Virus record (IMG/VR): IMGVR_UViG_2541047968_000015
Location: 1-10,718 of that record
Direction: 5' to 3' (one strand)
From: a virus
Taxonomy: Duplodnaviria; Heunggongvirae; Uroviricota; Caudoviricetes
DNA length: 10,718 nucleotides
Positions 1 through 10,718 of this stretch are shown here, piece after piece (the first letter of the stretch is position 1; each line of letters begins with the position of its first letter). Made by a program: the position numbers and the translations under genes. Under the pieces are notes generated by a model. That model made no database searches, was not told the DNA's origin, and saw only the letters and a program-made list of their open reading frames with translations.

Positions 1-339
1 TGCAGCACGACGGTATAAGCCCCTGGACTCCAGTTCTTCCGCCTGGCGGGTCAGGCACAAAATCACCCTGGGATCGTTAGTGCCGACATAGAAATTGCGC
101 ACAGGTATGGTTTCAAGAACAGGTTGCAGTTTCTCCTCCTGCGATATCTCAGCCTGGTGTGGGAAATGTCTGCGTGTTTTCCCTTCACAACAGTGAGCCA
201 CACGGCCACTCTGACGTAACTTGCTTGCTGACTGCAGAACGCACTGTCGTGAGTAACCAGCAAAAGCATCCGCAATGTCACCTGAAGTACACCCCGGATG
301 GGCTTCAATGAATTTCTGTACATCGTTCATCAGACTCAT
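1..339 (-). CDS. Hypothetical protein, 3' end beyond window start (113 codons in window)
   Basis: Not in the ORF track. Hand translation of the minus strand from ATG (339-337) is open to position 1: MSLMNDVQKFIEAHPGCTSGDIADAFAGYSRQCVLQSASKLRQSGRVAHCCEGKTRRHFPHQAEISQEEKLQPVLETIPVRNFYVGTNDPRVILCLTRQAEELESRGLYRRAA. A GGGGG Shine-Dalgarno and the upstream gene's TGA stop sit directly 5' of the ATG (AGGGGGTGAtcATG). Function not recognised. Confidence 0.5.
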   Translation of the reverse strand, partial: MSLMNDVQKFIEAHPGCTSGDIADAFAGYSRQCVLQSASKLRQSGRVAHCCEGKTRRHFPHQAEISQEEKLQPVLETIPVRNFYVGTNDPRVILCLTRQAEELESRGLYRRAA

Positions 340-341
340 GA

Positions 342-1325
342 TCACCCCCTGAATCCTGTCGGGATCTGGCTGTAGTCCACGTTGTCGTAACTGGCTTTGA
401 AGTACGGGTCCTCGCGTCTGGCTGCAGATACCGCAGGAACTTCCCAGGATTCTTCGAAATGACGATCCGGACCAAAGAACGTGACAGCCTGTTTCACAAA
501 TTGTGTGCCGCTATTGCCCATCGCAGATACCCAGCCCGCGTAGCGTTTCACACCTTCCAGCATGGCTTCGGGGTTTACCCCCTCGTTCAAACGGGCTTTC
601 CAGGCTTTGAAGGCTGCTGATTTTGAATTGCCACCAGCACGTTTGGGATATTCCTGCCAGGCCTGTTCAAATTCCGGTGAATATTCCTGTCGGGCAGAAC
701 GCGCTGGCGCAGACGCGTCAGCGGATGCATCAATAGTGTTTTTAGTCTCCGTTGTAATCTCTGTAGTAATCTCTGTATTTGTATCAACATTCGGCGTATC
801 CCCTGTTCCGTTATGACGTCGGGGGGTGTTCCGTTTTAACGTAATAGCTGTATCGCTGATTGCATTATTGCTGTTACTTTCTGGCGAAACAGAAGAAGGT
901 GTGGTGATGGCCGCAATTGCCTGTGGGTTGATCCCGACAAACAAAATATTGCTGCATTTCACCCCATCGAGCATTTCCACCGTGCGTAAATCCAGAGTAA
1001 TAAACCCTGCATCGCGCAGACGCTTCAGCGCATCTGCGGTTTCCCTTTTCCCGAAACCAAACTGCTCAGCAAACGCCTGGTAGCTTCTTTGCAGTTTGTC
1101 GCCCTGAAAACGCTTGCGATATCCCAGCAACGCTCCGGTGTGCTCATCCCTGACCTCTGTCGGGCGGTACCAGTAAACGATCTCTGAAAGCAGAGCGATA
1201 GCCGTCGCATCCGGACGCCCACTGGGTAGTCGAATATATTTCCACCAGGTCGCAGGTGTAACATTGCCGGAAATATTAATTTGACCAATAGCCATAACTT
1301 CCGGTGTGGGGGCGTAACGGCTCAT
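342..1325 (-). CDS. Phage replication initiation / replisome-organiser protein (O-like)
   Basis: 327-aa ORF with AGGAGG 4 nt upstream of the ATG. The C-terminal region (FEQAWQEYPKRAGGNSKSAAFKAWKARL ... GTQFVKQAVTFFGPDRHFEESWEV) has the W/K-rich signature I associate with phage replication-initiator families. The ATG overlaps the upstream gene's stop (ATGA). Position in the cro-side operon matches lambda O or Rac ydaU. Confidence 0.75.
   Translation of the reverse strand: MSRYAPTPEVMAIGQINISGNVTPATWWKYIRLPSGRPDATAIALLSEIVYWYRPTEVRDEHTGALLGYRKRFQGDKLQRSYQAFAEQFGFGKRETADALKRLRDAGFITLDLRTVEMLDGVKCSNILFVGINPQAIAAITTPSSVSPESNSNNAISDTAITLKRNTPRRHNGTGDTPNVDTNTEITTEITTETKNTIDASADASAPARSARQEYSPEFEQAWQEYPKRAGGNSKSAAFKAWKARLNEGVNPEAMLEGVKRYAGWVSAMGNSGTQFVKQAVTFFGPDRHFEESWEVPAVSAARREDPYFKASYDNVDYSQIPTGFRG
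754..777. repeat. Perfect tandem direct repeat, 2 x 12 bp (gtaatctctgta), inside the replication gene linker region
   Basis: Seen directly: 754-765 and 766-777 are identical. It encodes the TEITTEITTE linker of the replication protein. A 9-bp direct repeat tgttccgtt lies nearby at 805-813 and 828-836. Confidence 0.7.
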
Positions 1326-1621
1326 ACAACCTCCTTCCGCGGCATGAGAATTGTGTAGCCACGCGCAGGTTGTAGTCTGGCTTTTGCATCAATAGTAAGC
1401 GTTGCAATTTTTCGGATATGAAGATAACCAGCTCTTTCCAGTGCCAGGGTTTCCCTGAATATCGCTTGCTTAGAACAACAGCAGAAATCAGCAAGCACCT
1501 GATGATCAATAACTCTCTCGCCTTCACCGTCTGAAGAACCCGACATCAAAACACGCAACATAATCAGGCGCTGAATCGGGTTATCGAAAGCACATCCGCA
1601 CACAAACTGAAAACAGTTCAC
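1322..1621 (-). CDS. Hypothetical small protein (99 aa)
   Basis: ORF with GTG start overlapping the upstream stop (GTGA) and its own stop overlapping the replication gene's ATG (ATGA), so it is translationally coupled within the leftward operon. No family recognised. Confidence 0.5.
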   Translation of the reverse strand: MNCFQFVCGCAFDNPIQRLIMLRVLMSGSSDGEGERVIDHQVLADFCCCSKQAIFRETLALERAGYLHIRKIATLTIDAKARLQPARGYTILMPRKEVV

Positions 1622-1842
1622 GCCACACCTCCCAGACGCTTAAACATTTTTCCGGAGCAAAAGGCTATAAGCGGCATACTGACGCGGTAATTACGGCCCA
1701 GCGGTTCACAAATCACCTTCTGACATTCACGGTCAACCAGGCTAACACGTAGAACATGCCCTGCAGGCGTGGTGTACCACTGACCCGGACGAGGACAACG
1801 GAAAGTATGATTGGTAAACCGTTTGAAAATATTCCGGATCAT
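1618..1842 (-). CDS. Hypothetical small protein (74 aa)
   Basis: ORF whose ATG (1842-1840) overlaps the Rha-like stop (ATGA); coupled within the leftward operon. No family recognised. Confidence 0.5.
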   Translation of the reverse strand: MIRNIFKRFTNHTFRCPRPGQWYTTPAGHVLRVSLVDRECQKVICEPLGRNYRVSMPLIAFCSGKMFKRLGGVA

Positions 1843-2384
1843 TTGCGCCCCCTTACCTCTGAAGGGTTCAGCGACAAATTTATGAGACTGGCCAGTAGCG
1901 CCGCGTCGTTGATGCGGTCATACAGACTTACAGCCAGCGGGGATTCGGCTTTTGCCAACATGGGATAAAGCTGCTGCAGCCAGACCTTGTGGATTACCGA
2001 CAGGTGGGAGTAAAGCACGCTGGCGTTATCTGCGGCATCGCTCAGCGTGGATGGCTTTGAAAGCAGTTTTTCCATCTGGTTAAAGGCATTGATGTATGCC
2101 TCTTTGAACTGGGCAGCACGTTTACCCGTGAAACCCATAGCAAGAAACGCAAAGCCGTCGCGGGTTATTTGATAGCAAGGTAGTTTGCGGCCTGTGCAAT
2201 CGGTGTAATCACTCACCGAAAAATTGCGGGCAGTGAATGATGCGGAACATTCAAGCGTGCGGATCTTTTTCAGTACATCGTCATGACGTTTGGAGAAGAA
2301 GTTGGCAACAGCCAGGGATGAAGTAACAGCCTGACCATCAACGATGGCAATTTCAGGTTGAGTGAGGGTTGGGATCGTAGCCAT
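1839..2384 (-). CDS. rha: Phage regulatory protein Rha-like (pRha domain), 181 aa
   Basis: Internal ATG at 2384-2382 preceded by GGAGG with an 8-nt spacer. The protein starts MATIPTLTQPEIAIVDGQAVTSSLAVANFFSKRHDDVLKKIRTL ... YQITRDGFAFLAMGFTGKRAAQFKEAYINAFNQME, matching the Rha family signature (F.KRHD.VL..IR ... DGF.FL.MGFTGK.A..FKE.YI.AF). The ORF track merges it with a 201-codon upstream in-frame extension. Confidence 0.8.
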   Translation of the reverse strand: MATIPTLTQPEIAIVDGQAVTSSLAVANFFSKRHDDVLKKIRTLECSASFTARNFSVSDYTDCTGRKLPCYQITRDGFAFLAMGFTGKRAAQFKEAYINAFNQMEKLLSKPSTLSDAADNASVLYSHLSVIHKVWLQQLYPMLAKAESPLAVSLYDRINDAALLASLINLSLNPSEVRGRK

Positions 2385-2987
2385 GATGGCAGCCTCCGTA
2401 TGCAATGGATAACTTCCACCACCGGAAACGCCAATTTCGCTGGTGGTGAACTGAGCAGGGTTGGCGTAACCGGCGCATACGGAAACCGGCGCACCTTTCG
2501 GTGCCCCCACCCAGCCCACCATAATTTGGGTATAGCTGAGTTGTAGCAACAAAAAAGACGCTAACGCGCCAATTGTCGCCGTATGCAATTCCAGGACGCC
2601 AATCCCGACACCCGCTTTATAAGGTGCCTGAACAGTGTAACGTCCCGGAATGGCAGAATCAATGTGCTGGTGGTCCTTCACACTCAACAAAATCACGCCT
2701 GAATTTCCACAAAGGACTAAAGCACTCATGCTGGTAGTCTTTGCGAAGATAGATAACGCGCTGTGTTTCTGGCTCCCAACGAATAACATGGACATAAAGC
2801 CCTCTTCCGTCACGAAACCAGCGGTTAAGTTCCTGCACAACTCGCCCCCCACAGTCAGGTAAAGTTCTCTGTGGTTACTTACAGCCAGGTGATTTGGTAA
2901 TCTGCATTCATGCCGTAACAACAGGTGTTCAGCGACGCTGACCACCAGCTGTTGCGACAAACGGTTATTTGCCGTTAAACTATTCAT
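2385..2987 (-). other. In-frame open segment (201 codons) between the YdaT-like and Rha-like genes; coding status unresolved
   Basis: ATG at 2987-2985 overlaps the YdaT-like stop (ATGA) and the frame runs without a stop into the Rha ATG. The translated sequence is low in charged residues (about 11 percent), rich in S/L/A/G/V, and matches no family I recognise. Could be a real N-terminal domain, a separate or fused gene, or a fortuitously open frame. Confidence 0.3.
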
Positions 2988-3541
2988 GCGTTAGTTTCTC
3001 CACAACCAGAAGCAATCGACGCCACGACGCCCGGAGCTGCACACTCGCGGGCGTTACTATTTTCTGGAGCGCAGAAGATTTTGTAGACCAGTGCTGCATG
3101 CTCCTGGAGCTTCGAAATTGAGAGGTACAGCTCGTCGTTAATTGCTGTCTTCTCATGCGGTTCCACTACACCGTCTTCGATTGCTGAACGAATCTGTCTG
3201 GAATAACTGCCGATCTGTTCAATGACTTCCAGCAGACGCTGGTTAATATCGGCGTTGTCCACATCCTCGACGTCAGGAAGAGACACAAAGACGCCATTTG
3301 CAGACTGCGCCACAGCGTCAGCAATGAAGTGAGTTCCACCAGCACGTTGTAAAATCATTGCCCATCCCAGCGGGAAAATCTGATCGCCATCTGCACGAAG
3401 GCGGTTGAATAATGCGTTCTCTGTTACATCCAGCCACTCAGCAGCTTCAGCGTAACCCCCCGGCAACGCCGCGATAGTTTTTCTGACAGCTTTCACGTAC
3501 CACTCAGGCTGTTTTTCCACTTTCCAGTGATGATTACCCAC
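2984..3541 (-). CDS. CII-like / YdaT-like regulatory protein (185 aa)
   Basis: ORF with GTG start (3541-3539) preceded by GGAGG with a 6-nt spacer, overlapping the end of the cro-like gene. Its position directly after the cro-like gene matches lambda cII or Rac ydaT; the family assignment is by position and weak recollection only. Confidence 0.55.
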   Translation of the reverse strand: MGNHHWKVEKQPEWYVKAVRKTIAALPGGYAEAAEWLDVTENALFNRLRADGDQIFPLGWAMILQRAGGTHFIADAVAQSANGVFVSLPDVEDVDNADINQRLLEVIEQIGSYSRQIRSAIEDGVVEPHEKTAINDELYLSISKLQEHAALVYKIFCAPENSNARECAAPGVVASIASGCGETNA

Positions 3542-3794
3542 GGCTTACCTCCTGTTCCTGTGGTTTAAACCCATTCTGGTTTTGGCTAGATTGAAAACGT
3601 GCCGGATAAAGAATCTGCATTTCGCTGATTTCACCCTTAAAAAAATTGGCCAGACGTTCTGCAAGATCGATAGATGGAATTTGTTCCAGTCTTTCAATAC
3701 GACTCAGCGTCGCTGGATTGACCTGAACGCCCGCAGCAACATGCTGCAAAGTAAATCCGTGCGCCTTACGCACATTCCGTAATGGTGATTGCAT
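3534..3794 (-). CDS. cro: Cro-like HTH (XRE-family) transcriptional regulator, 86 aa
   Basis: ORF with ATG at 3794-3792 and GGAGG 5' of it. Helix-turn-helix motif (GFTLQHVAAGVQVNPATLSRIERLEQIPS). Divergent from the repressor gene across a 97-bp operator region. Confidence 0.8.
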   Translation of the reverse strand: MQSPLRNVRKAHGFTLQHVAAGVQVNPATLSRIERLEQIPSIDLAERLANFFKGEISEMQILYPARFQSSQNQNGFKPQEQEVSRG

Positions 3795-3891
3795 ATAACC
3801 TCCACATATTGCGTGATGAGCATATTATTTCACGCAAATATTTTGCGCAAGTTGATTTGCTTAACGCGCAATAAAGAAATGTAATAAACGC
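3795..3891. promoter_or_regulatory. Divergent immunity-region promoter/operator segment (PR-like for cro; cI promoter unresolved)
   Basis: Minus-strand promoter candidate: -35 TTGCGC (complement of 3845-3850), 17-nt spacer, -10 TAATAT (complement of 3822-3827). Inverted repeat TTGCGTGA-N13-TCACGCAA at 3809-3837 overlaps the -10 and start region. Palindrome TTGCGCAA at 3843-3850. A 15-bp TTGC-N7-GCAA site at 3857-3871. Confidence 0.6.
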
Positions 3892-4584
3892 ATGAACATA
3901 GGAAACCGAGTCAGACAACTTCGCCAGGCGAAGAACATGAAAATCGCCGATCTCGCTGAAGCAATAGGAGTGGATGCGGCGAATATCTCACGCCTGGAAA
4001 CAGGTAAGCAGAAACAATTCACTGAACAAGCCCTGAGTAATATTGCCAGGAGCTTAGGTGTTGATATTGCTGATCTCTTTACCTCAGACGTCAAAAGTAA
4101 TACTGTATGTAAAAACAGTATTAGTGAGGATGTTGCGCAGGTGAAGGATGTATTCCGTATTGAAATGCTGGATGTCAGTGCCAGTGCGGGAAATGGCCTT
4201 ATCCAGGGCGGTGATGTCATTGATGTGATTCATGCCATTGAATACAGAACTGATAATGCTGTATCGATGTTTGGTGGACGACCAGCAAATCACATTAAAG
4301 TTATCAACGTTCGTGGGGACAGTATGTGTCCAACCATTGAGCCAGGAGATCTCATCTTCGTTGATATCAGTATCAATCAGTTTGATGGGGATGGTATATA
4401 TGTATTTGGTTTTGATGATAAAATTTACGTCAAACGACTGCAAATGATACCTGATAAACTGCTGGTAATTTCTGATAATCAGATTTACCGCGAATGGGGA
4501 ATTACCAGCGAAAACGAACATCGGTTTATGGTCTTTGGAAAGGTCTTAATCAGTCAGTCACAAACCCTTAAGCGACACAATTAA
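3892..4584 (+). CDS. cI: cI-like prophage repressor, N-terminal HTH plus C-terminal S24 (LexA-like) peptidase domain, 230 aa
   Basis: N-terminal HTH (MKIADLAEAIGVDAANISRLETGKQ). C-terminal S24 signature with catalytic Ser in GDSM (VINVRGDSMCPTIEPGDLIFVD) and downstream Lys (IYVKRL). Divergent from the cro-like gene. Confidence 0.9.
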   Translation: MNIGNRVRQLRQAKNMKIADLAEAIGVDAANISRLETGKQKQFTEQALSNIARSLGVDIADLFTSDVKSNTVCKNSISEDVAQVKDVFRIEMLDVSASAGNGLIQGGDVIDVIHAIEYRTDNAVSMFGGRPANHIKVINVRGDSMCPTIEPGDLIFVDISINQFDGDGIYVFGFDDKIYVKRLQMIPDKLLVISDNQIYREWGITSENEHRFMVFGKVLISQSQTLKRHN

Positions 4585-4605
4585 CCCCCTACCTCAACAT
4601 CAATT

Positions 4606-4630
4606 AGCCACCAGAAGGTGGCTTTTCATT
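4606..4630 (+). terminator. Rho-independent terminator downstream of the repressor gene
   Basis: Perfect 7-bp stem AGCCACC (4606-4612) / GGTGGCT (4617-4623) with loop AGAA, followed by TTTCATT. Confidence 0.8.
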
Positions 4631-4640
4631 ACCCACCAAA

Positions 4641-4694
4641 TTGCATATCTCGCAATAAAAACACTTGCATAATGCGCAACTTCATTTTATCTTT
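4641..4694 (+). promoter_or_regulatory. PL-like operator pair and candidate rightward early promoter
   Basis: Two 15-bp TTGC-N7-GCAA sites (4641-4655 ttgcatatctcgcaa; 4665-4679 ttgcataatgcgcaa) share the half-site motif of the cro/cI intergenic sites. Candidate -35 TTGCAT (4665-4670) and weak -10 TATCTT (4688-4693) with a 17-nt spacer. Promoter hexamers are weak; the operators are the firmer observation. Confidence 0.45.
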
Positions 4695-5123
4695 CTTTCC
4701 AGACCTACAAACAAGGTACTAACAAAATTTGGTTGTAACACGGCGTATGGCACATGCGTCGTTAGCGGTCTGGGGACGTTAAAGGGGACAATCCACTCCT
4801 TGCTCGGGCAAACAAACCAGGTAGCCGGAATGTGCAAGTCAATGAGGATGCTGATAAGACGCCTAACCAGCGTGGCGATTCGGTTTGACGCCTGGGAAGA
4901 GACCAGGACGCAACGATGAGAGCATTTATGGAGCCGCGACAAAGTGTGGTGCCGTAACTGGCTAAGTGCTCTCAGCGTTGTGGTGAATGCGCAGGCTGAT
5001 GCGCGAAAGACATTGCAGCTATTGCGGAAAAGAGCTGTTCGGCGGGGCAATTAAACGCCCGTGAGAGTCTGAAATAACCGCAAGCCGGAGATCAGCACCG
5101 GTCACCACAACAGCCACTGCTTT

Positions 5124-5170
5124 GGCGGTACCAGTTTGTACACTTGCTTCCGGCTGGTACCGCTCTTTTT
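5124..5170 (+). terminator. Hairpin with T-tract (candidate intrinsic terminator or attenuator) in the leader of the rightward operon
   Basis: Perfect 10-bp inverted repeat GCGGTACCAG (5125-5134) / CTGGTACCGC (5154-5163) with a 19-nt loop, followed by TCTTTTT (5164-5170). The loop is long for a canonical terminator. Confidence 0.45.
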
Positions 5171-5259
5171 ACAAAACAGAGAAGAGCATCACCGGACGAC
5201 GGGCTCATAACCCAATCCATCCGGGCGGCTGCCACCGCAGGTGTTCTTCTCTGTTTTGT
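5171..5259. repeat. Perfect 15-bp inverted repeat with 59-bp spacer, immediately upstream of the RdgC-like RBS
   Basis: ACAAAACAGAGAAGA (5171-5185) and its exact reverse complement TCTTCTCTGTTTTGT (5245-5259). The left arm abuts the T-tract of the preceding hairpin; the right arm ends about 22 nt before the GAGGAAAA Shine-Dalgarno. Confidence 0.7.
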
Positions 5260-5293
5260 GGAGAAACTAATACATTGTGCAGAGGAAAATAGA

Positions 5294-6211
5294 ATGAAAT
5301 TACCAAAATTTCGTAACGCAATTGTGTACCGAGCAACATTACCTAGTATACAGGCTATTGAAGGTCATCTTCTCGAACTCCCTTATTCTGAAATCGGGGA
5401 AACAGAATTTTCACGGTCCTCTTTTGTAGAGAATCCTGTCACTGGTGAACTGGTAACTCCGATATCTGGTGGGTACGCAATGGTAATCCGTCATGATCAG
5501 AAAATAATTCCCCGACATGTCGTCATGAAAGAAGCTAATTCTCGAATCCAAACAATCGAAAATATGTCCGGGAATAAATTAAAGCGTGCCGAACGACTGG
5601 CCATTATTGATAACGTACGAGTAGATCTATGCAAACAGGCATTTGTTAAGTCTACTCTGATTCTTGCATTGTACAGCACTGATGAGAAATTATTGGTAAT
5701 CAACACAACCAATAAAATAATAGCCGGTATGGTATGCGCAATGCTGATTAAGGTTGTCGGTTCAGTGAAAACAGAAACAATCAACATCAGTGATATCAAG
5801 AATGGACTGACTACACGCCTGAATAACTACATCAATGGTGCAGCCAATGCATTTGAAGGATTCACTGTCGGAAATTATATTCAGCTATCACGCTACGCAG
5901 ATCAAAAGGAAATTATTCGCTACTCAGCTGAGCATGAGTCAATTCAAAGCGAACTGGCCGATAGCCTTAGTAGTAGTTTCACTGCTGATAAAATGGAGTT
6001 ATCCGGTTGCGGTGTGACCTTCATTCTTACCGAAAATTTCCATTTTTCGCGCATCAATACTCAATCTCAGACATTTAATGATGAAGATGATAAAGCATTC
6101 CAGTGGCGTCATCAGACTGGCGCTGACCTTTTCCAATTCAGCAAGGTAGTTAATTTGATGTGTGACCTTCTTTCTTACAAAGAAGATAAAAGCCAAAATC
6201 CAACAACTTAA
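5294..6211 (+). CDS. RdgC-like recombination-associated DNA-binding protein (305 aa)
   Basis: ATG at 5294 preceded by GAGGAAAA. The N-terminus MKLPKFRNAIVYRATLPS parallels RdgC (MLWFKNLMVYRLS...), and further blocks (AMVIRHDQKIIPRHVVMKEANSRIQTIE; LILALYSTDEKLLVINTTNKIIAGMVCAMLIKVVGSVKT) align with my recollection of E. coli RdgC. The track's TTG-start extension (5144) is rejected. The gene is noticeably AT-rich relative to its neighbours. Confidence 0.8.
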   Translation: MKLPKFRNAIVYRATLPSIQAIEGHLLELPYSEIGETEFSRSSFVENPVTGELVTPISGGYAMVIRHDQKIIPRHVVMKEANSRIQTIENMSGNKLKRAERLAIIDNVRVDLCKQAFVKSTLILALYSTDEKLLVINTTNKIIAGMVCAMLIKVVGSVKTETINISDIKNGLTTRLNNYINGAANAFEGFTVGNYIQLSRYADQKEIIRYSAEHESIQSELADSLSSSFTADKMELSGCGVTFILTENFHFSRINTQSQTFNDEDDKAFQWRHQTGADLFQFSKVVNLMCDLLSYKEDKSQNPTT

Positions 6212-6215
6212 AAAA

Positions 6216-6259
6216 ATTGCAGCAATCATCCCATGTTAAATGGGCTGGATTGCTGCAAT
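6216..6259. repeat. 12-bp perfect inverted repeat (ATTGCAGCAATC / GATTGCTGCAAT) with 20-bp spacer between the rdgC-like and HD genes
   Basis: Arms at 6216-6227 and 6248-6259. The spacer contains a nested CCCAT/ATGGG mini-hairpin. An A7 run (6209-6215) precedes it, so on the minus strand it reads as stem plus U-tract. Confidence 0.6.
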
Positions 6260-6301
6260 CAAAATTCAGAGCGGTGCAGCGCATATAACGTGGAGAACAA
6301 A

Positions 6302-6838
6302 ATGTCATTTATTAAAACTTTTTCCGGGAAGCATTTTTATTATGACAAGATAAATAAAGACGACATCGTGATTAACGATATCGCGGTTTCCCTTTCAAAT
6401 ATCTGCCGCTTTGCCGGTCATCTTTCTCACTTCTACAGTGTCGCCCAACATGCGGTGCTTTGCAGCCAGCTGGTGCCGCAGGAATTTGCTTTTGAAGCGT
6501 TAATGCATGATGCAACAGAAGCGTATTGCCAGGATATTCCCGCTCCACTGAAACGCCTTCTTCCTGACTATAAACGGATGGAAGAAAAAATAGACGCCGT
6601 AATCCGTGAGAAATACGGGTTACCCCCGGTTATGAGCACGCCTGTGAAATATGCCGATCTCATCATGCTGGCAACCGAACGCCGCGATCTCGGGCTTGAT
6701 GATGGCTCTTTCTGGCCAGTACTGGAAGGTATCCCGGCAACAGAAATGTTCAAAGTTATTCCACTGGCTCCGAGCCATGCCTACGGGATGTTTATGGAGC
6801 GCTTTAACGAGTTATCGGAGTTACGCACATGCGCATGA
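6302..6838 (+). CDS. HD-domain phosphohydrolase (YfbR-like 5'-nucleotidase fold), 178 aa
   Basis: ATG at 6302 preceded by GGAGA. Metal-binding HD signature: H in VAQHAV, HD in EALMHDATEAY, and downstream D in ADLIMLATERRD. The track's longer start at 6233 lies inside the inverted repeat and is rejected. Confidence 0.75.
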   Translation: MSFIKTFSGKHFYYDKINKDDIVINDIAVSLSNICRFAGHLSHFYSVAQHAVLCSQLVPQEFAFEALMHDATEAYCQDIPAPLKRLLPDYKRMEEKIDAVIREKYGLPPVMSTPVKYADLIMLATERRDLGLDDGSFWPVLEGIPATEMFKVIPLAPSHAYGMFMERFNELSELRTCA

Positions 6839-7440
6839 ATGTTTTCGAAATGGAAGGGTTTCTTCGCGGGAAATGTGTACCACGAGATCTGAAAGTGAAT
6901 GAAACAAATGCTGAATATCTGGTGCGTAAATTTGCTGAAGCGGAGGCCAAGATTTTGGCTCTGTCCGAAGACCAACAGAAATCGATTGAGTCAATTAAGC
7001 AGGCTGATGCAGCTGTTAAGTTGGCACACGAGAAGTTTTCGGCGCTGGCGGCGGAGAATGCGGGGCTGAAACACGCAATGGCCGTAACTCTTGAGCATGT
7101 GTCGGTCACGGATGCAGGGCAGGCTGGTGTTGCTGCAATGATTATCAACGATGCCCTGCACCACAGCGAAACTCCAGCCACCGATGCTTTCCTGGCTGAA
7201 ATTCGTGCGGAAGCACGCAACGAGGGGATTAACTATACCGCAAGCCGTCTTGCTGCTGCTTTCAATCACGGATTTATCAATAAGTCTTTACGTGAAGTTT
7301 TCGACGTTACACGCATGATTCTGTCAGCGAAAGAAGAGTTGGCTAATGAACCACACCCGATTGATGGCCTGTCCGGTGAATATGCGGAGAAATCCCTAGA
7401 AGAATGGGCGGAACAGATTCGCAAAGGAGGCAACCAGTGA
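6829..7440 (+). CDS. Hypothetical coiled-coil protein of the Ea22-like accessory region (203 aa)
   Basis: ATG at 6829 with GGAG 8 nt upstream, overlapping the HD gene stop. Ala/Glu/Lys-rich heptad-like N-terminal half. Family uncertain. Confidence 0.65.
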   Translation: MRMNVFEMEGFLRGKCVPRDLKVNETNAEYLVRKFAEAEAKILALSEDQQKSIESIKQADAAVKLAHEKFSALAAENAGLKHAMAVTLEHVSVTDAGQAGVAAMIINDALHHSETPATDAFLAEIRAEARNEGINYTASRLAAAFNHGFINKSLREVFDVTRMILSAKEELANEPHPIDGLSGEYAEKSLEEWAEQIRKGGNQ

Positions 7441-7661
7441 GCGGAAAAAGAATGACTAACAGAGAGCTTGTCGATGCCGCGATTAAGCTTGCTGGTGATT
7501 TTTATTCAATGATGGGGTACACGCATCGCCCAGGCTTCAAATATTGGGAGTCTCCTCACCCGCAAGAGCAACTGGTATTTCAAATGGCCTGCCGTGCTTT
7601 TGAGGTTATTTGCGGTTCTGATGTGATGGACGCCGTTGCCGACTTGGAGGATGAAGAGTGA
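7437..7661 (+). CDS. Hypothetical small protein (74 aa, GTG start)
   Basis: GTG at 7437 overlaps the upstream TGA (GTGA) with GGAGG 6 nt upstream. The track's longer 7404 start lacks an RBS. An in-frame ATG at 7452 is an alternative start. Confidence 0.6.
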   Translation: MSGKRMTNRELVDAAIKLAGDFYSMMGYTHRPGFKYWESPHPQEQLVFQMACRAFEVICGSDVMDAVADLEDEE

Positions 7662-8023
7662 GCGAGATTAACTATCAGGCACTGCGTGAGGCAGCAGTAG
7701 CAATTGAAACAGTGGCAACGCCTCAAAAATTGCAGGCGTTTCGGATGAAGGTCACACCGTCGGTGGTACTGGCGCTGCTGGATGAAATTAAGCGCCTGGA
7801 GGACACAAATATTGATGCTATGTGCCGAATTGCAGAACTGGAAGCGAGGGAAGTCGAGTTACCGGATGGCTACGAACCCCGTATGGGCCACCCAATAAAT
7901 AGCGGTGAGCGGGTGGTAATGATGCCGCACCACTTTGGTGGATGGCTGGACCGCTTCGACGTCGAGCACGCATTGCAGGCAGCGGGGATCAAATTCAAAA
8001 CAGCGGGGGTTGAGTACGAATGA
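7658..8023 (+). CDS. Ead/Ea22-like protein (121 aa)
   Basis: GTG start overlapping the upstream stop (GTGA) with GGAGG 7 nt upstream. The N-terminal motif INYQALREAA resembles the conserved start of Ead/Ea22-like proteins as I recall them. Confidence 0.6.
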   Translation: MSEINYQALREAAVAIETVATPQKLQAFRMKVTPSVVLALLDEIKRLEDTNIDAMCRIAELEAREVELPDGYEPRMGHPINSGERVVMMPHHFGGWLDRFDVEHALQAAGIKFKTAGVEYE

Positions 8024-8253
8024 TTGAGGGTATTAGCAATAAATCGTTGAACACAGCATGTGTCGACGGTGGGTTGTTGTACAAAGTGACGTTTACGCAA
8101 ATCGACAACGAAGATAACGCATTCACTGTGATTTACACGTCGCCAGCGATGGCGCAGAAGTGGGTGGATCTGCACAGGCTATGTGGTTTTCGTGTTGAGT
8201 GGGGGTGCTATGAGATGCGATGCAGATGGCATCATCGGGGGGATGAAAAATGA
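8020..8253 (+). CDS. Hypothetical small protein (77 aa)
   Basis: ATG overlaps the upstream stop (ATGA); G-rich stretch upstream. No family recognised. Confidence 0.55.
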   Translation: MIEGISNKSLNTACVDGGLLYKVTFTQIDNEDNAFTVIYTSPAMAQKWVDLHRLCGFRVEWGCYEMRCRWHHRGDEK

Positions 8254-8627
8254 GCACTACGCTTGAGCAATGGCTGGAACAGCAGCACGGCAAAATTGAT
8301 GTTGATTGCGGCTGTGTGAGCACTGAAACGCTTATGCACTGGATGCGTGTGGCGTATGAGGCTGGCAACTCTCCGGTAACTCCGGAGAGTTGGATAAGCT
8401 GTAGTGAGCGAATGCCAGAAATGGGAGAGCGACAATGCTATGTGTTAGCTGCTGACTTTAAAAACAACTACCCACCAAACATCCCCAACACTCAGGTCGG
8501 CGTATATGGCGACTGGTTTAATGATGGCAAGCCCACTTGGGATGACGGTGATGGCGAAGACCTGTATCTCAAGGAGGTAACCCACTGGATGCCGCTGCCA
8601 GAACCGCCGCAAGAGGTGAATCAATGA
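8250..8627 (+). CDS. DUF551-like phage protein (125 aa)
   Basis: ATG overlaps the upstream stop (ATGA). The C-terminal motif ...GDWFNDGKPTWDDGDGEDLYLKEVTHWMPLPEPP matches my recollection of the DUF551 signature (HWMP.P.PP). Confidence 0.65.
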   Translation: MSTTLEQWLEQQHGKIDVDCGCVSTETLMHWMRVAYEAGNSPVTPESWISCSERMPEMGERQCYVLAADFKNNYPPNIPNTQVGVYGDWFNDGKPTWDDGDGEDLYLKEVTHWMPLPEPPQEVNQ

Positions 8628-8707
8628 GCTGGCCTGATGCAATCGTAACTCTGGGGGTGGTATTCGCAGCAGCGTTTGTTGTGTTCTCGATTTGTCGATG
8701 GGGATAA
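8624..8707 (+). CDS. Candidate 27-aa single-pass hydrophobic peptide
   Basis: Hand-translated: ATG at 8624 overlaps the DUF551 gene stop (ATGA), giving MSWPDAIVTLGVVFAAAFVVFSICRWG then TAA. It exactly fills the gap before the next gene. Below the ORF-track size cutoff. Confidence 0.35.
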   Translation: MSWPDAIVTLGVVFAAAFVVFSICRWG

Positions 8708-8711
8708 CCAC

Positions 8712-8954
8712 ATGTTCGCTTTGATTCAACGCGGGCAGATATACACCGATAGTGCTGGCTACCCGATAAAAATTGTTCGCTGCATAAACAACACTGTGTT
8801 GTACAGAAGAATGGATGGGCGAACACAGTCGGTAAAAATAAACGATTTTAATGAACTGTTTGAACGGATCGATCACCAGGAATACCGACAAATTCTGGCA
8901 GAAACAGAGCAGGAAGCTCATCTGAAAAAATTACGAGCCATGAAAAGGAAGTAA
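8712..8954 (+). CDS. Hypothetical small phage protein (80 aa; possibly DUF4222-like)
   Basis: ATG at 8712 with GGGGA 7 nt upstream. The track's TTG start at 8676 overlaps the small peptide ORF and is rejected. The pattern IQRGQIYTDSAGYPIKIV...VLYRR...F resembles small DUF4222-type proteins, but this is a weak recollection. Confidence 0.55.
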   Translation: MFALIQRGQIYTDSAGYPIKIVRCINNTVLYRRMDGRTQSVKINDFNELFERIDHQEYRQILAETEQEAHLKKLRAMKRK

Positions 8955-8957
8955 ACA

Positions 8958-9104
8958 ATGAATAAAGCATTTGAACAATGGGTCCACCAGCGTTACGGCA
9001 ATCGCTATGACCTGACGCGAGATGTTGACGGTTTCTACTGTCGTGAAATTGTGAAACGAATGTTTGAAGTGTGGTGCCACTGCCGTGGGCTGAGTGTTGT
9101 GTGA
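8958..9104 (+). CDS. Candidate small Cys/His-containing protein (48 aa)
   Basis: Hand-translated: AGGAAG 8 nt upstream of ATG 8958, giving MNKAFEQWVHQRYGNRYDLTRDVDGFYCREIVKRMFEVWCHCRGLSVV then TGA at 9102-9104. It fills the gap before xis. Below the track cutoff. Confidence 0.45.
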   Translation: MNKAFEQWVHQRYGNRYDLTRDVDGFYCREIVKRMFEVWCHCRGLSVV

Positions 9105-9112
9105 GGTAATGC

Positions 9113-9349
9113 ATGGGCAATGTGATTCAACTGGCTCCCAATGAATGGGTTTGTGAAAGCGTTCTAATCGCAATTACCGGGCTCAAACCAGGCACAATTC
9201 TTCGGGCCCGGAAAGAATGCTGGATGGTTGGAAGAGAGTATATTCACGTATCACCAGACGGTAATCCAAAGCCTTCCAGTGAATGTATGTATAACAGAAA
9301 AGCAATAGGTGCCTGGGTCGCTTCAATGAAAAACAAACAACCTGGGTGA
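9113..9349 (+). CDS. xis: Excisionase-like protein (78 aa)
   Basis: Immediately upstream of the integrase. The segment ILRARKECWMVGREYIHV parallels lambda Xis VRRWVRECRIFPP..GREYLFH. GAGGT lies upstream of the ATG. Confidence 0.65.
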   Translation: MGNVIQLAPNEWVCESVLIAITGLKPGTILRARKECWMVGREYIHVSPDGNPKPSSECMYNRKAIGAWVASMKNKQPG

Positions 9350-9404
9350 TTTAATGCCATGAAGTATGTAAGCTCGTATCGCTCTTGGGCGTCTGGAGGT
9401 ATCA

Positions 9405-10718
9405 ATGGATAAAGTCAAATATCCAACAGGCGTCGAAAACCACGGCGGCACATTACGCATCTGGTTTAATTTTAAAGGTAAACGTGTCAGGGAAAATCTT
9501 GGTGTCCCTGACACTGCCAAGAACAGGAAGATCGCCGGGGAACTGCGGACATCGGTATGTTTTGCCATCCGCACAGGAAGCTTTGATTATGCTGCACAGT
9601 TCCCTGACTCCCCCAACCTTCAGGCTTTTGGGGTAAGTAAAAAAGAAATTACGGTGAAGGAACTTGAAGAAAAGTGGCTGGATCTGAAACGAATGGAAAT
9701 CTCTGCAAATGCATTCAATCGCTATGAATCCGTTGCAAGAACGATGGTTTCGAAAATTGGAGGCAGTAGACTGGTGTCATCGGTAACCAAAGAGGAATTG
9801 CTGTATATCAGGAAAGATTTGCTAACCGGGTATCAGAATTCAACGAAAAACAAAGCAGCAGCAAAAGGACGGAGCGTCGTTACTGTAAATTATTACATGA
9901 CGACAATCGCTGGAATGTTTCAGTTTGCTGCAGATCACGGTTACTTAGAAGCAAATCCCTTCCAGGGAATTAAGCCTCTTAAAAGAGCCAGGGCAGAGCC
10001 AGATCCGCTAACTCGTGACGAATTTATTCGCCTGATAGATGCTTGCCGACATCAGCAGACGAAAAACCTGTGGTCATTGGCTGTGTACACAGGAATGCGT
10101 CACGGTGAACTGGTCTCCCTGGCCTGGGAAGATATCGATCTGAAGGCAGGAACAATTACCATCAGGCGCAATTATACGAAACTTGGTGAGTTCACTCTAC
10201 CGAAAACTGAAGCAAGCACAAACAGGGTTGTGCACCTTATCCAGCCCGCTATCAGTGTCCTGAAAAATCAGGCTGAAATGACAAGACTGGGTAAGCAGTA
10301 CAACATCAAGGTGCAACTACGTGAATATGGACGTTCAGTGAACCATGAATGTACTTTCGTGTTTAACCCTCAAGTGGTTAGAAAAAGCGAACAGGTAGGT
10401 TTTGTCTACAAAGTCGATTCTGTAGGTGACTCATGGGAAACAGCCATTAAGCGTGCAGGGATCAGGCATCGAAAGGCATACCAGTCACGACACACTTATG
10501 CGTGCTGGTCATTATCTGCCGGAGCAAACCCAAGCTTCATTGCCAGCCAGATGGGCCATGCAAGTGCCCAGATGGTATTCAATGTATACGGAGCATGGAT
10601 GACTGACAGCAATGCAGAACAGATCGCAATGCTGAATCAGAAGCTGACAGATTATGTCCCAATGATGCCCCATAGTCACCAAAGTGACACCAGAGGCTTA
10701 TTAAAATCAGTAAGTTAA
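9405..10718 (+). CDS. int: Tyrosine site-specific integrase, IntR/Rac-type with N-terminal arm-binding domain (437 aa)
   Basis: GGAGGT 5 nt upstream of the ATG. N-terminus PTGVENHGGTLRIWFNFKGKRVRENLG is typical of the arm-type DNA-binding domain. C-terminal catalytic region has RHTYACWSL ... MGHASAQMVFNVYGAW with the Tyr nucleophile. The stop codon coincides with the window end. Confidence 0.9.
   Translation: MDKVKYPTGVENHGGTLRIWFNFKGKRVRENLGVPDTAKNRKIAGELRTSVCFAIRTGSFDYAAQFPDSPNLQAFGVSKKEITVKELEEKWLDLKRMEISANAFNRYESVARTMVSKIGGSRLVSSVTKEELLYIRKDLLTGYQNSTKNKAAAKGRSVVTVNYYMTTIAGMFQFAADHGYLEANPFQGIKPLKRARAEPDPLTRDEFIRLIDACRHQQTKNLWSLAVYTGMRHGELVSLAWEDIDLKAGTITIRRNYTKLGEFTLPKTEASTNRVVHLIQPAISVLKNQAEMTRLGKQYNIKVQLREYGRSVNHECTFVFNPQVVRKSEQVGFVYKVDSVGDSWETAIKRAGIRHRKAYQSRHTYACWSLSAGANPSFIASQMGHASAQMVFNVYGAWMTDSNAEQIAMLNQKLTDYVPMMPHSHQSDTRGLLKSVS

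Follow-up and report, generated by a model that had tools for sequence, protein, structure and literature searches.

A terminator and a widespread Y-shaped RNA with an initiator tRNA-like arm in the early-left leader of lambdoid phages

What does a perfect inverted repeat, set directly behind a terminator-like hairpin and just ahead of an rdgC-like gene, do for the prophage that carries it? Here we address this question in a 10,718-nt stretch of viral DNA (IMG/VR record IMGVR_UViG_2541047968_000015, positions 1 to 10,718; hereafter the window), a lambdoid prophage sequence to which E. coli strain SW070917 is 99.7% identical in a search with positions 4600-5900 (1.3 kb). The initial annotation of the window had noticed a hairpin (hairpin 1) and, abutting it, the repeat (hairpin 2), for which it offered an RNA stem-loop, a dimeric protein site on the DNA or the ends of a small inserted element. 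We find that hairpin 2 is an undescribed, widespread structured RNA. Judging from the sequence, we further consider it plausible, if somewhat short of probable, that the two hairpins are abutting but separable modules of early-left (PL) leader RNA in lambdoid phages that lack an N gene at that place, the first a terminator gate and the second a control element mimicking the anticodon arm of the initiator tRNA, tRNA-fMet.

The repeat itself is well beyond chance, as had been claimed: ACAAAACAGAGAAGA (5171-5185) has its exact reverse complement at 5245-5259, 59 nt further on, and it is the only perfect 15-nt inverted repeat with a loop of 3-100 nt in the window, none having appeared in dinucleotide shuffles (0/300). 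Read as RNA, the arms extend to a stem, P1, of 20 bp including G-U pairs (5171-5190 / 5240-5259; 21 bp by RNAalifold), which may reach 25 bp if the U-tract of hairpin 1 pairs with GGAGA (5260-5264). The ~90-nt stem-loop that the initial annotation had foreseen is thereby upheld in its stem, which covariation bears out and which is longer than supposed, but not in its loop, as the 59-nt spacer holds two further hairpins that meet P1 in a three-way junction: P2 (5192-5224, plus strand), an irregular, conserved arm with its apex at 5197-5213 (CGACGGGCTCATAACCC), and P3 (5225-5238, plus strand), a variable arm that reads GCGG CUGCCA CCGC in the window. The whole Y-shaped RNA occupies 5171-5259 on the plus strand. 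Hairpin 2 (5163-5268) folds at -51.2 kcal/mol, and the fold prediction that had been proposed as a check gives a stable plus-strand structure for 5115-5275 (-72.4 kcal/mol, z = -8.4; minus strand z = -4.8).

Comparison with relatives supports this structure. Across an alignment of 42 distinct hairpin 2 sequences (A3), 94.5% of cells are paired versus 36-48% with the partners slid, 9 pairs (76 cells) have changed on both sides, and the covariation score is 0.179 versus 0.03-0.06 in the slid controls; RNAalifold independently recovers the same Y shape. The same covariation figures, plus four compensated pairs in the lower P2 helix, came from a second set of 59 distinct sequences retrieved with arm-only baits and aligned to a covariance model of the element (R1), an alignment that leans towards the structure of the model; overall, slid controls reach 36-53% and 9-10 pairs have changed on both sides. 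Compensated changes of the kind by which the initial annotation had proposed to judge the repeat in homologous prophages are thus present. P1 is of constant length and free of indels in the alignment, and most lineages share a single conserved mismatch at its 11th pair (34/42 and 59/59 sequences), the perfect 15-mer being a peculiarity of the window's lineage. P3, by comparison, spans from ~14 to 41 nt (length differences of +2, +3, +4, +19, +23, +26 and +27 nt), with changes on both sides in three of its four pairs. Because non-Watson-Crick cells on the plus strand comprise 70 G-U as opposed to 22 A-C, the RNA corresponds to the plus strand, the sense strand of the operon. The window reaches 117.2 bits with model R1, and Rfam holds no family for hairpin 2. 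One IMG/VR contig (2609459834_000002) combines a P1 5' arm of the window's type with the 3' arm of another lineage, so that its stem contains mismatches; it apparently arose by recombination, the crossover falling within hairpin 2.

As a mosaic unit (5122-5270), the locus is found in 2811 of 5426 complete E. coli genomes (52%) as well as in 62 phage records (SfV, SfII, SfIV, mEp460, cdtI, Stx2c/Stx2a/Stx2k phages, ST64B, phiNP and LLS), and more distant copies lie in genomes of Citrobacter, Kosakonia, Enterobacter and Mixta. Hairpin 2 is present once per phage (this holds for the window, for every locus examined and for SfV, searched as a complete genome) and one to five times per bacterial genome, always in the PL leader of lambdoid prophages. 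A genome-wide scan with a degenerate pattern returned mostly chance matches, eight true loci being recovered by nhmmer, and a metagenome scan added only six close relatives. None of six signature strings of hairpin 2 occurs in the searchable literature.

These observations make a role at the DNA level (a palindrome for a dimeric protein, a cruciform or the ends of a miniature inserted element) very improbable, even though the perfect 15-bp repeat and the sharp homology boundaries of the unit would suit it. Arm sequences change while their complementarity stays, G-U pairs, which would be A-C in DNA, are common on one strand only, and most family members carry the arm mismatch. The dimeric DNA-binding site of the initial annotation is contradicted by this pattern, and its small inserted element by the single copy per phage, held in one leader position and one context; neither dispersed copies nor a target-site duplication, as expected of miniature inverted-repeat elements, were seen, and the flanks CTCTTTTT and GGAGAAAC are not repeats.

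Equally hard to credit is the idea that the region codes for protein. Open reading frames (ORFs) do span the unit in many relatives, and in the window at 5122-5292 (+) and 5092-5235 (-), and public annotations exist: the copy in the K-12 prophage e14 lies inside the annotated ORF ymfH (3363-3674 of that locus), and hypothetical proteins are annotated in cdtI and mEp460 (the latter mEp460_036, 3493-3636 of its locus). Furthermore, a ymfH clone has a phenotype, reportedly triggering the retron-Sen2 toxin RcaT (bioRxiv 10.1101/2020.06.22.160242). Against this, no reading frame survives the P3 length differences of +2, +4, +19, +23 and +26 nt, the substitutions compensate one another in RNA pairing, and the supposed ORFs contain a terminator and are annotated on opposite strands in different records. 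The phenotype of the ymfH clone might instead be an effect of the RNA.

Within hairpin 2, conservation is highest at the apex of P2, while P1 and lower P2 drift with compensation. Three G-C pairs (5201-5203 / 5211-5213) close a 7-nt loop, CUCAUAA (5204-5210), and the apex CGACGGGCTCATAACCC shares 16 of its 17 positions with CGTCGGGCTCATAACCC of the E. coli tRNA-fMet, 14 of them consecutive, a similarity that was reached by 0/2000 shuffles. The tRNA with CGTCGGGCTCATAACCC matches annotated tRNA-Met at 100% in the genomes listed and is present at 99% or more in all 5426. The initial annotation had missed this junction interior and its copy of the initiator anticodon arm. In a set of 168 distinct members, collected with baits confined to the P1 3' arm so that P2 was not used, CAU occupies the anticodon positions in 165 (98%) and the apex stem is GGG/CCC in 157 (93%); the loop reads CUCAUAA in 68.5%, CUCAUUC in 22% and UUCAUAA in 3.6%, its positions 6-7 varying in ~27%. 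What is conserved is therefore the anticodon together with the G-C pairs, the features that, according to what Hartz, Gold and colleagues and RajBhandary and colleagues are said to have found, the 30S P site and initiation factor 3 (IF3) read in selecting the initiator.

P2 is thus a likeness of the tRNA-fMet anticodon arm placed in an mRNA leader and conserved in relatives. There is precedent for this kind of control by tRNA mimicry: the thrS operator of E. coli is an mRNA leader that mimics the anticodon arm of tRNA-Thr, and in both systems a leader hairpin reproduces the anticodon stem-loop of one specific tRNA. Unlike the thrS operator, however, hairpin 2 carries its tRNA-fMet likeness atop a 20-bp stem that lies ~85 nt from where the gene starts, has no synthetase gene linked to it, and is phage-borne and portable between first genes. 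To our knowledge, mimicry of tRNA-fMet has not been described for any mRNA of bacterial or phage origin. A tRNA gene or whole-tRNA mimic was rejected, as ARAGORN finds no tRNA gene and Rfam no tRNA match, and the acceptor, D and T arms of a cloverleaf are absent. The e14 copy of hairpin 2 has a mutated loop, UUAAUAA. Potential partners of the CUCAUAA loop (TTATGAG sites) occur in the window at chance level only, apart from a 12/14 complement in yfdR: CGGUUAUGAGCACG (6627-6640, plus strand, inside yfdR at 6233-6838) is complementary at 12 of 14 positions to 5200-5213 of the hairpin, lies on the same transcript and would be expected ~0.07 times by chance.

The same apex invites another interpretation, in which P2 would act as a decoy for, or a sensor of, a factor attacking the anticodon arm of tRNA-fMet, such as the VapC/MvpT toxins of Shigella and Salmonella, protecting the phage or coupling the operon to toxin activity. 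The variation in the loop does not favor it: the 22% of members with CUCAUUC keep CAU but alter loop positions 37-38, next to which Winther and Gerdes reportedly placed the VapC cleavage site in 2011, so that these positions are not conserved. Moreover, 52% of E. coli genomes and several genera carry the element whereas VapBC is sporadic, and a single leader copy would make a poor stoichiometric decoy. We regard this possibility as a long shot, although P2 reproduces the anticodon stem-loop exactly, PL leaders are early transcripts, the hosts of SfV, SfII, SfIV and ST64B are Shigella and Salmonella, and VapC of Salmonella and Shigella cleaves tRNA-fMet (PMC7180214).

Hairpin 1 (5124-5170, plus strand) is, as far as its sequence tells, a conserved intrinsic terminator and an ordinary feature. 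Its arms GCGGTACCAG (5125-5134) and CTGGTACCGC (5154-5163) form a perfect 10-bp core (10/10), lengthened by RNAfold to 13 pairs (5124-5136 / 5152-5164, -21.2 kcal/mol), and a U-tract, TCTTTTT (UCUUUUU in RNA), follows directly at 5164-5170; the stem and U-tract thus stand as first described, and the minus strand has no U-tract after the hairpin. The suggestion that this is a terminator gains from the relatives, 40 of 45 representatives of which have a GC-rich stem with 5-7 U directly abutting hairpin 2. The stem sequences themselves are unrelated between lineages (GGCGGUACCAG, GUCGGCGUC, GGCGGCAUC, CUGGCGG, UGCCCA), structure being kept where sequence is not, which argues for selection on the terminator structure. 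The relatives L196, L257, L263 and L288 lack hairpin 1, a situation that the initial annotation had not noticed; in L263 and L288 hairpin 2 begins ~25 nt beyond a promoter whose operators are of the same type. As hairpin 2 can stand directly after PL without hairpin 1, the two are separable modules rather than one switch.

The downstream edge of the unit is sharp. Directly after P1 comes a conserved 3' boundary (5258-5270, plus strand) that reads GUG-GAG-AAA-CUAA, with GGAGAAAC at 5260-5267, and in which, where P1 ends, a start codon overlaps a Shine-Dalgarno-like GGAG. All aligned relatives keep GGAGA, and GTG or ATG precedes GAG in 46/46 sequences examined (the window and 45 relatives), giving (G/A)UG-GAG-AAA-C. 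Homology to most relatives stops at 5270-5271 of the window (query position 171-172), just after GGAGAAACUAA, and the gene beyond varies: it may be xisE, a YfdP-like gene, one of two RdgC-like types or something else. A module that precedes such different genes is portable and does not depend on the gene that follows, which argues for a role at the level of the operon rather than as the operator of one gene. In the window that gene is rdgC-like (ribosome-binding site GAGGAA at 5282-5287, ATG at 5294, end at 6211, plus strand; RdgC by RefSeq annotation in the 99.7% identical genome), and the inverted repeat ends 22 nt before its ribosome-binding site.

Two ideas on this boundary region were discarded. 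Pairing of GGAGA with the U-tract fails as the cause, GGAGAAAC being equally conserved in L263 and L288, which have no U-tract. A short ORF (MEKL...) runs from the NUG after P1 in most relatives, usually ending at or near the ribosome-binding site or start of the first gene; this pattern is indistinguishable from chance, and the peptide is not conserved. In relatives (e.g., L005, 3172-3210), a third co-varying hairpin such as GGCGGUGGCAGCCGCC or CGACCUUGCAGGGUCG lies between GGAGAAAC and the first gene; the window (~5270) lost it at a recombination junction, where the rdgC ribosome-binding site stands instead.

How might the two modules work together? Hairpin 1 would stop most PL transcripts as well as read-through from the repressor gene, keeping rdgC-xis-int silent. 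Transcripts that pass it would fold hairpin 2, which would act in cis on the whole operon mRNA irrespective of the first gene. The tRNA-fMet look-alike would engage the normal reader of that arm, most likely IF3 and the 30S P site, beside the NUG/GGAG of hairpin 2 itself, or alternatively would pair directly with a start codon. In this way it would control how ribosomes load where the operon begins. The long P1 duplex may, in addition, determine RNase III processing or stability. That hairpin 2 is a virus-encoded mimic of the initiator anticodon arm working through the translation-initiation machinery, either by docking in the 30S P site (as an internal ribosome entry site-like or ribosome-trapping element) or by masking start codons in cis, is a tentative proposal. 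Several points weigh against the mechanism, and the partner of P2 is a guess. Along the chain, ~45 nt separate the apex from the NUG/GGAG and ~85 nt separate it from the start codon of rdgC, with a rigid 20-bp helix in between, and the short ORF from the NUG lacks statistical support. P2 is invariant below its apex as well, which suggests a binding surface larger than the anticodon arm. CUCAUUC, found in more than a fifth of members, is not a legal tRNA loop at position 37. Loops CCCAUCA, CCCACCA or CUCCUAA occur in a few lineages whose structure is intact, and CCCUAAC in one. Finally, nothing was identified that would let RNA polymerase past hairpin 1.

In a rival account, hairpin 2 is mainly an RNase III processing site or 5' stabilizer: a P1 of 20-25 bp would be cut or would protect the mRNA 5' end, setting the untranslated leader apart from the coding mRNA, as happens in the T7 early mRNAs and the lambda N leader, and the tRNA-like apex would be ancestry or chance. 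P1 makes about two helical turns of constant length in all members and so reaches the ~20 bp or more of double-stranded RNA that RNase III requires, an A/U-rich single strand (AAACUAA) follows the stem, and the module is gene-independent. The single mismatch at P1 position 11 in most lineages also fits, such a mismatch being typical of single-cut RNase III sites. Yet an RNase III site needs no invariant apical arm, and in hairpin 2 conservation peaks at the apex, with compensated drift in P1 and lower P2; the match to tRNA-fMet is also far beyond chance. We therefore rate this account as unlikely, and below the initiator-tRNA mimic.

Upstream of the pair, the window encodes a cro-like gene (3534-3794, minus strand) and an XRE/cI-like repressor gene (3892-4584, plus strand) with a terminator after it (4606-4623). 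A putative left operator and promoter (OL/PL; 4641-4693, plus strand) comprises two operator-like TTGC-N7-GCAA palindromes (4641-4655 and 4665-4679), a -35 hexamer TTGCAT (4665-4670) and a -10 hexamer TATCTT (4688-4693); both hexamers are inferred, and a consensus promoter scan did not call them. The palindrome pattern has four matches in the window versus 0.58 expected, the third in the cI/cro intergenic region (3857-3871) and the fourth at 2185-2199, without obvious operator context. Presumably, then, PL lies at ~4665-4693 and fires rightward, with the leader RNA starting near 4700. From there to the rdgC ATG there is no credible ORF, and the two hairpins would stand at the end of an untranslated leader of ~430 nt, on the plus strand, belonging to the early-left operon (rdgC, yfdR ... 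xis, int). The pair thus sits between the PL side and the rdgC ribosome-binding site, where the gating of an accessory/integration operon that the initial annotation had suggested is possible. The order repressor, leader, element, first early-left gene, int recurs in e14, SfV, ST64B, phiNP, LLS, mEp460, a Stx2c phage, O157:H7 and another E. coli, with no N-like gene at the loci examined and no N-like ORF in the leader.

A leader RNA in phages of this kind calls to mind the put RNAs of HK022. As a put analogue, hairpin 2 would be a processive antiterminator that binds the elongating RNA polymerase and resists Rho and terminators across the 5-kb early-left operon. It resembles put in being a structured RNA in the early-operon leader of lambdoid phages without an N homologue, with irregular conserved helices (here an invariant, bulged arm) and, in some members, a promoter-proximal place: in L263 and L288 it lies just downstream of PL, as putL does (PMC9378689). 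LLS, for which a put-like mechanism has been proposed (PMC12315714), carries hairpin 2 as well. It differs, however, in that its Y shape of 106-133 nt, with a three-way junction, contrasts with the two stems (~70 nt) of put, and in that it occurs once per genome with none in the PR operon, whereas HK022 has both putL and putR. Hairpin 2 is also usually downstream of the nearest terminator rather than upstream of terminators to be suppressed, and no convincing intrinsic terminators lie downstream in the window. Model R1 has no match in the HK022 PL/PR region (20000-34000, where putL was located), and identity with putL was rejected for want of any sequence or structure similarity. Antitermination by hairpin 2 itself is thus rather improbable.

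About as remote as the toxin decoy is a nut-like site, with P2 as the boxB for an unrecognized phage RNA-binding regulator. The leader position is that of nutL, the hairpin apex is invariant, and CGCUCUUUUUACAA at the junction of hairpins 1 and 2 in the window resembles boxA (CGCUCUUA / UGCUCUUUAACAA). Nevertheless, the boxA-like string is confined to the window (relatives have GCCCUUUUU or GCACUUUUUU) and is part of the terminator stem and P1, no small arginine-rich ORF lies next to the element, and the 7-nt loop is not a GNRA-like pentaloop; a conserved boxA with a boxB hairpin and an N-like gene, as in lambda-type nut, was not found. Compared with the lambda PL leader, where nutL and an RNase III site lie upstream of N, hairpin 2 likewise maps after PL and before the first early-left gene, and it has a long duplex that would suit RNase III as well as, in the window, the boxA-like string, but it has no boxB-type hairpin and no N gene, and the string is not conserved. 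Resemblance to boxA or ops was set aside more generally, neither CGCUCUUUUUACAA nor GGCGGTAC being conserved across the family. A likeness of upstream CACCACAAC to the GcvB target motif was likewise dropped, as the anti-small RNA AgvB lies in the PR' moron region and is unrelated.

The first ~80 nt of the predicted PL transcript (4698-4775, plus strand) fold into a three-way junction (z = -3.0), in place of which e14, SfV, ST64B and phiNP have, just downstream of PL, a different two-hairpin element of ~65 nt (ACAGGCAGGACGCC...GGATGATTCG) with compensatory changes in its second stem and a put-like position. Such a PL-proximal element could be what allows polymerase past hairpin 1. Very few E. 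coli genomes share window positions 4600-4970. One more inverted repeat, of 18 nt (4911-4928 / 4963-4980, 89% complementary), lies upstream of the STnc100-like helix described next.

Just ahead of hairpin 1, an upstream leader domain (4977-5111, plus strand) is closed by GUUGUGGUGA (4977-4986) and UCACCACAAC (5102-5111), a 10/10 inverted repeat. By leader alignment, its ends are homologous to an STnc100-like domain of SfV, e14 and ST64B, the middle being replaced in the window. In SfV, 216 nt ending in hairpin 1 match the Rfam family STnc100 (RF02076) end to end (39.5 bits, E = 2e-7), hairpin 1 aligning with the STnc100 terminator helix; ST64B and e14 match more weakly, and the scores of the relatives (39.5, 35.1 and 29.2 bits) are all below the gathering threshold of 47. 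The window has no match to the family at E up to 10, and its membership was rejected. STnc100 and the related PasD are prophage small RNAs (bioRxiv 10.64898/2026.05.13.724894), and STnc100 has been reported at least once in the late region rather than a PL leader, 75 nt downstream of the stx2 operon (PMC12370729). Given the sub-threshold scores and this late-region copy, the leader domain is at most a distant relative of STnc100; hairpin 2 itself is outside the family, although the domain upstream of it in SfV, e14 and ST64B matches end to end.

Elsewhere in the window, a C4 antisense RNA (80.7 bits, 2439-2526, minus strand) and an isrK RNA (58.9 bits, 2551-2627, minus strand) fall within a 382-aa ORF (1839-2987, minus strand) annotated in RefSeq as a Rha-family regulator, the start of which is probably over-extended. 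ST64B also carries the C4 and isrK pair.

Returning to the proposed terminator gate and initiator-tRNA mimic, hairpin 2 sits where lambdoid phages without N must decide on the expression of their recombination, excision and integration genes. If true, the proposal would amount to a previously unknown form of early-left operon control for N-less lambdoid phages. For genome annotation, the ORFs drawn over hairpin 2, including ymfH of K-12, are probably not genes.

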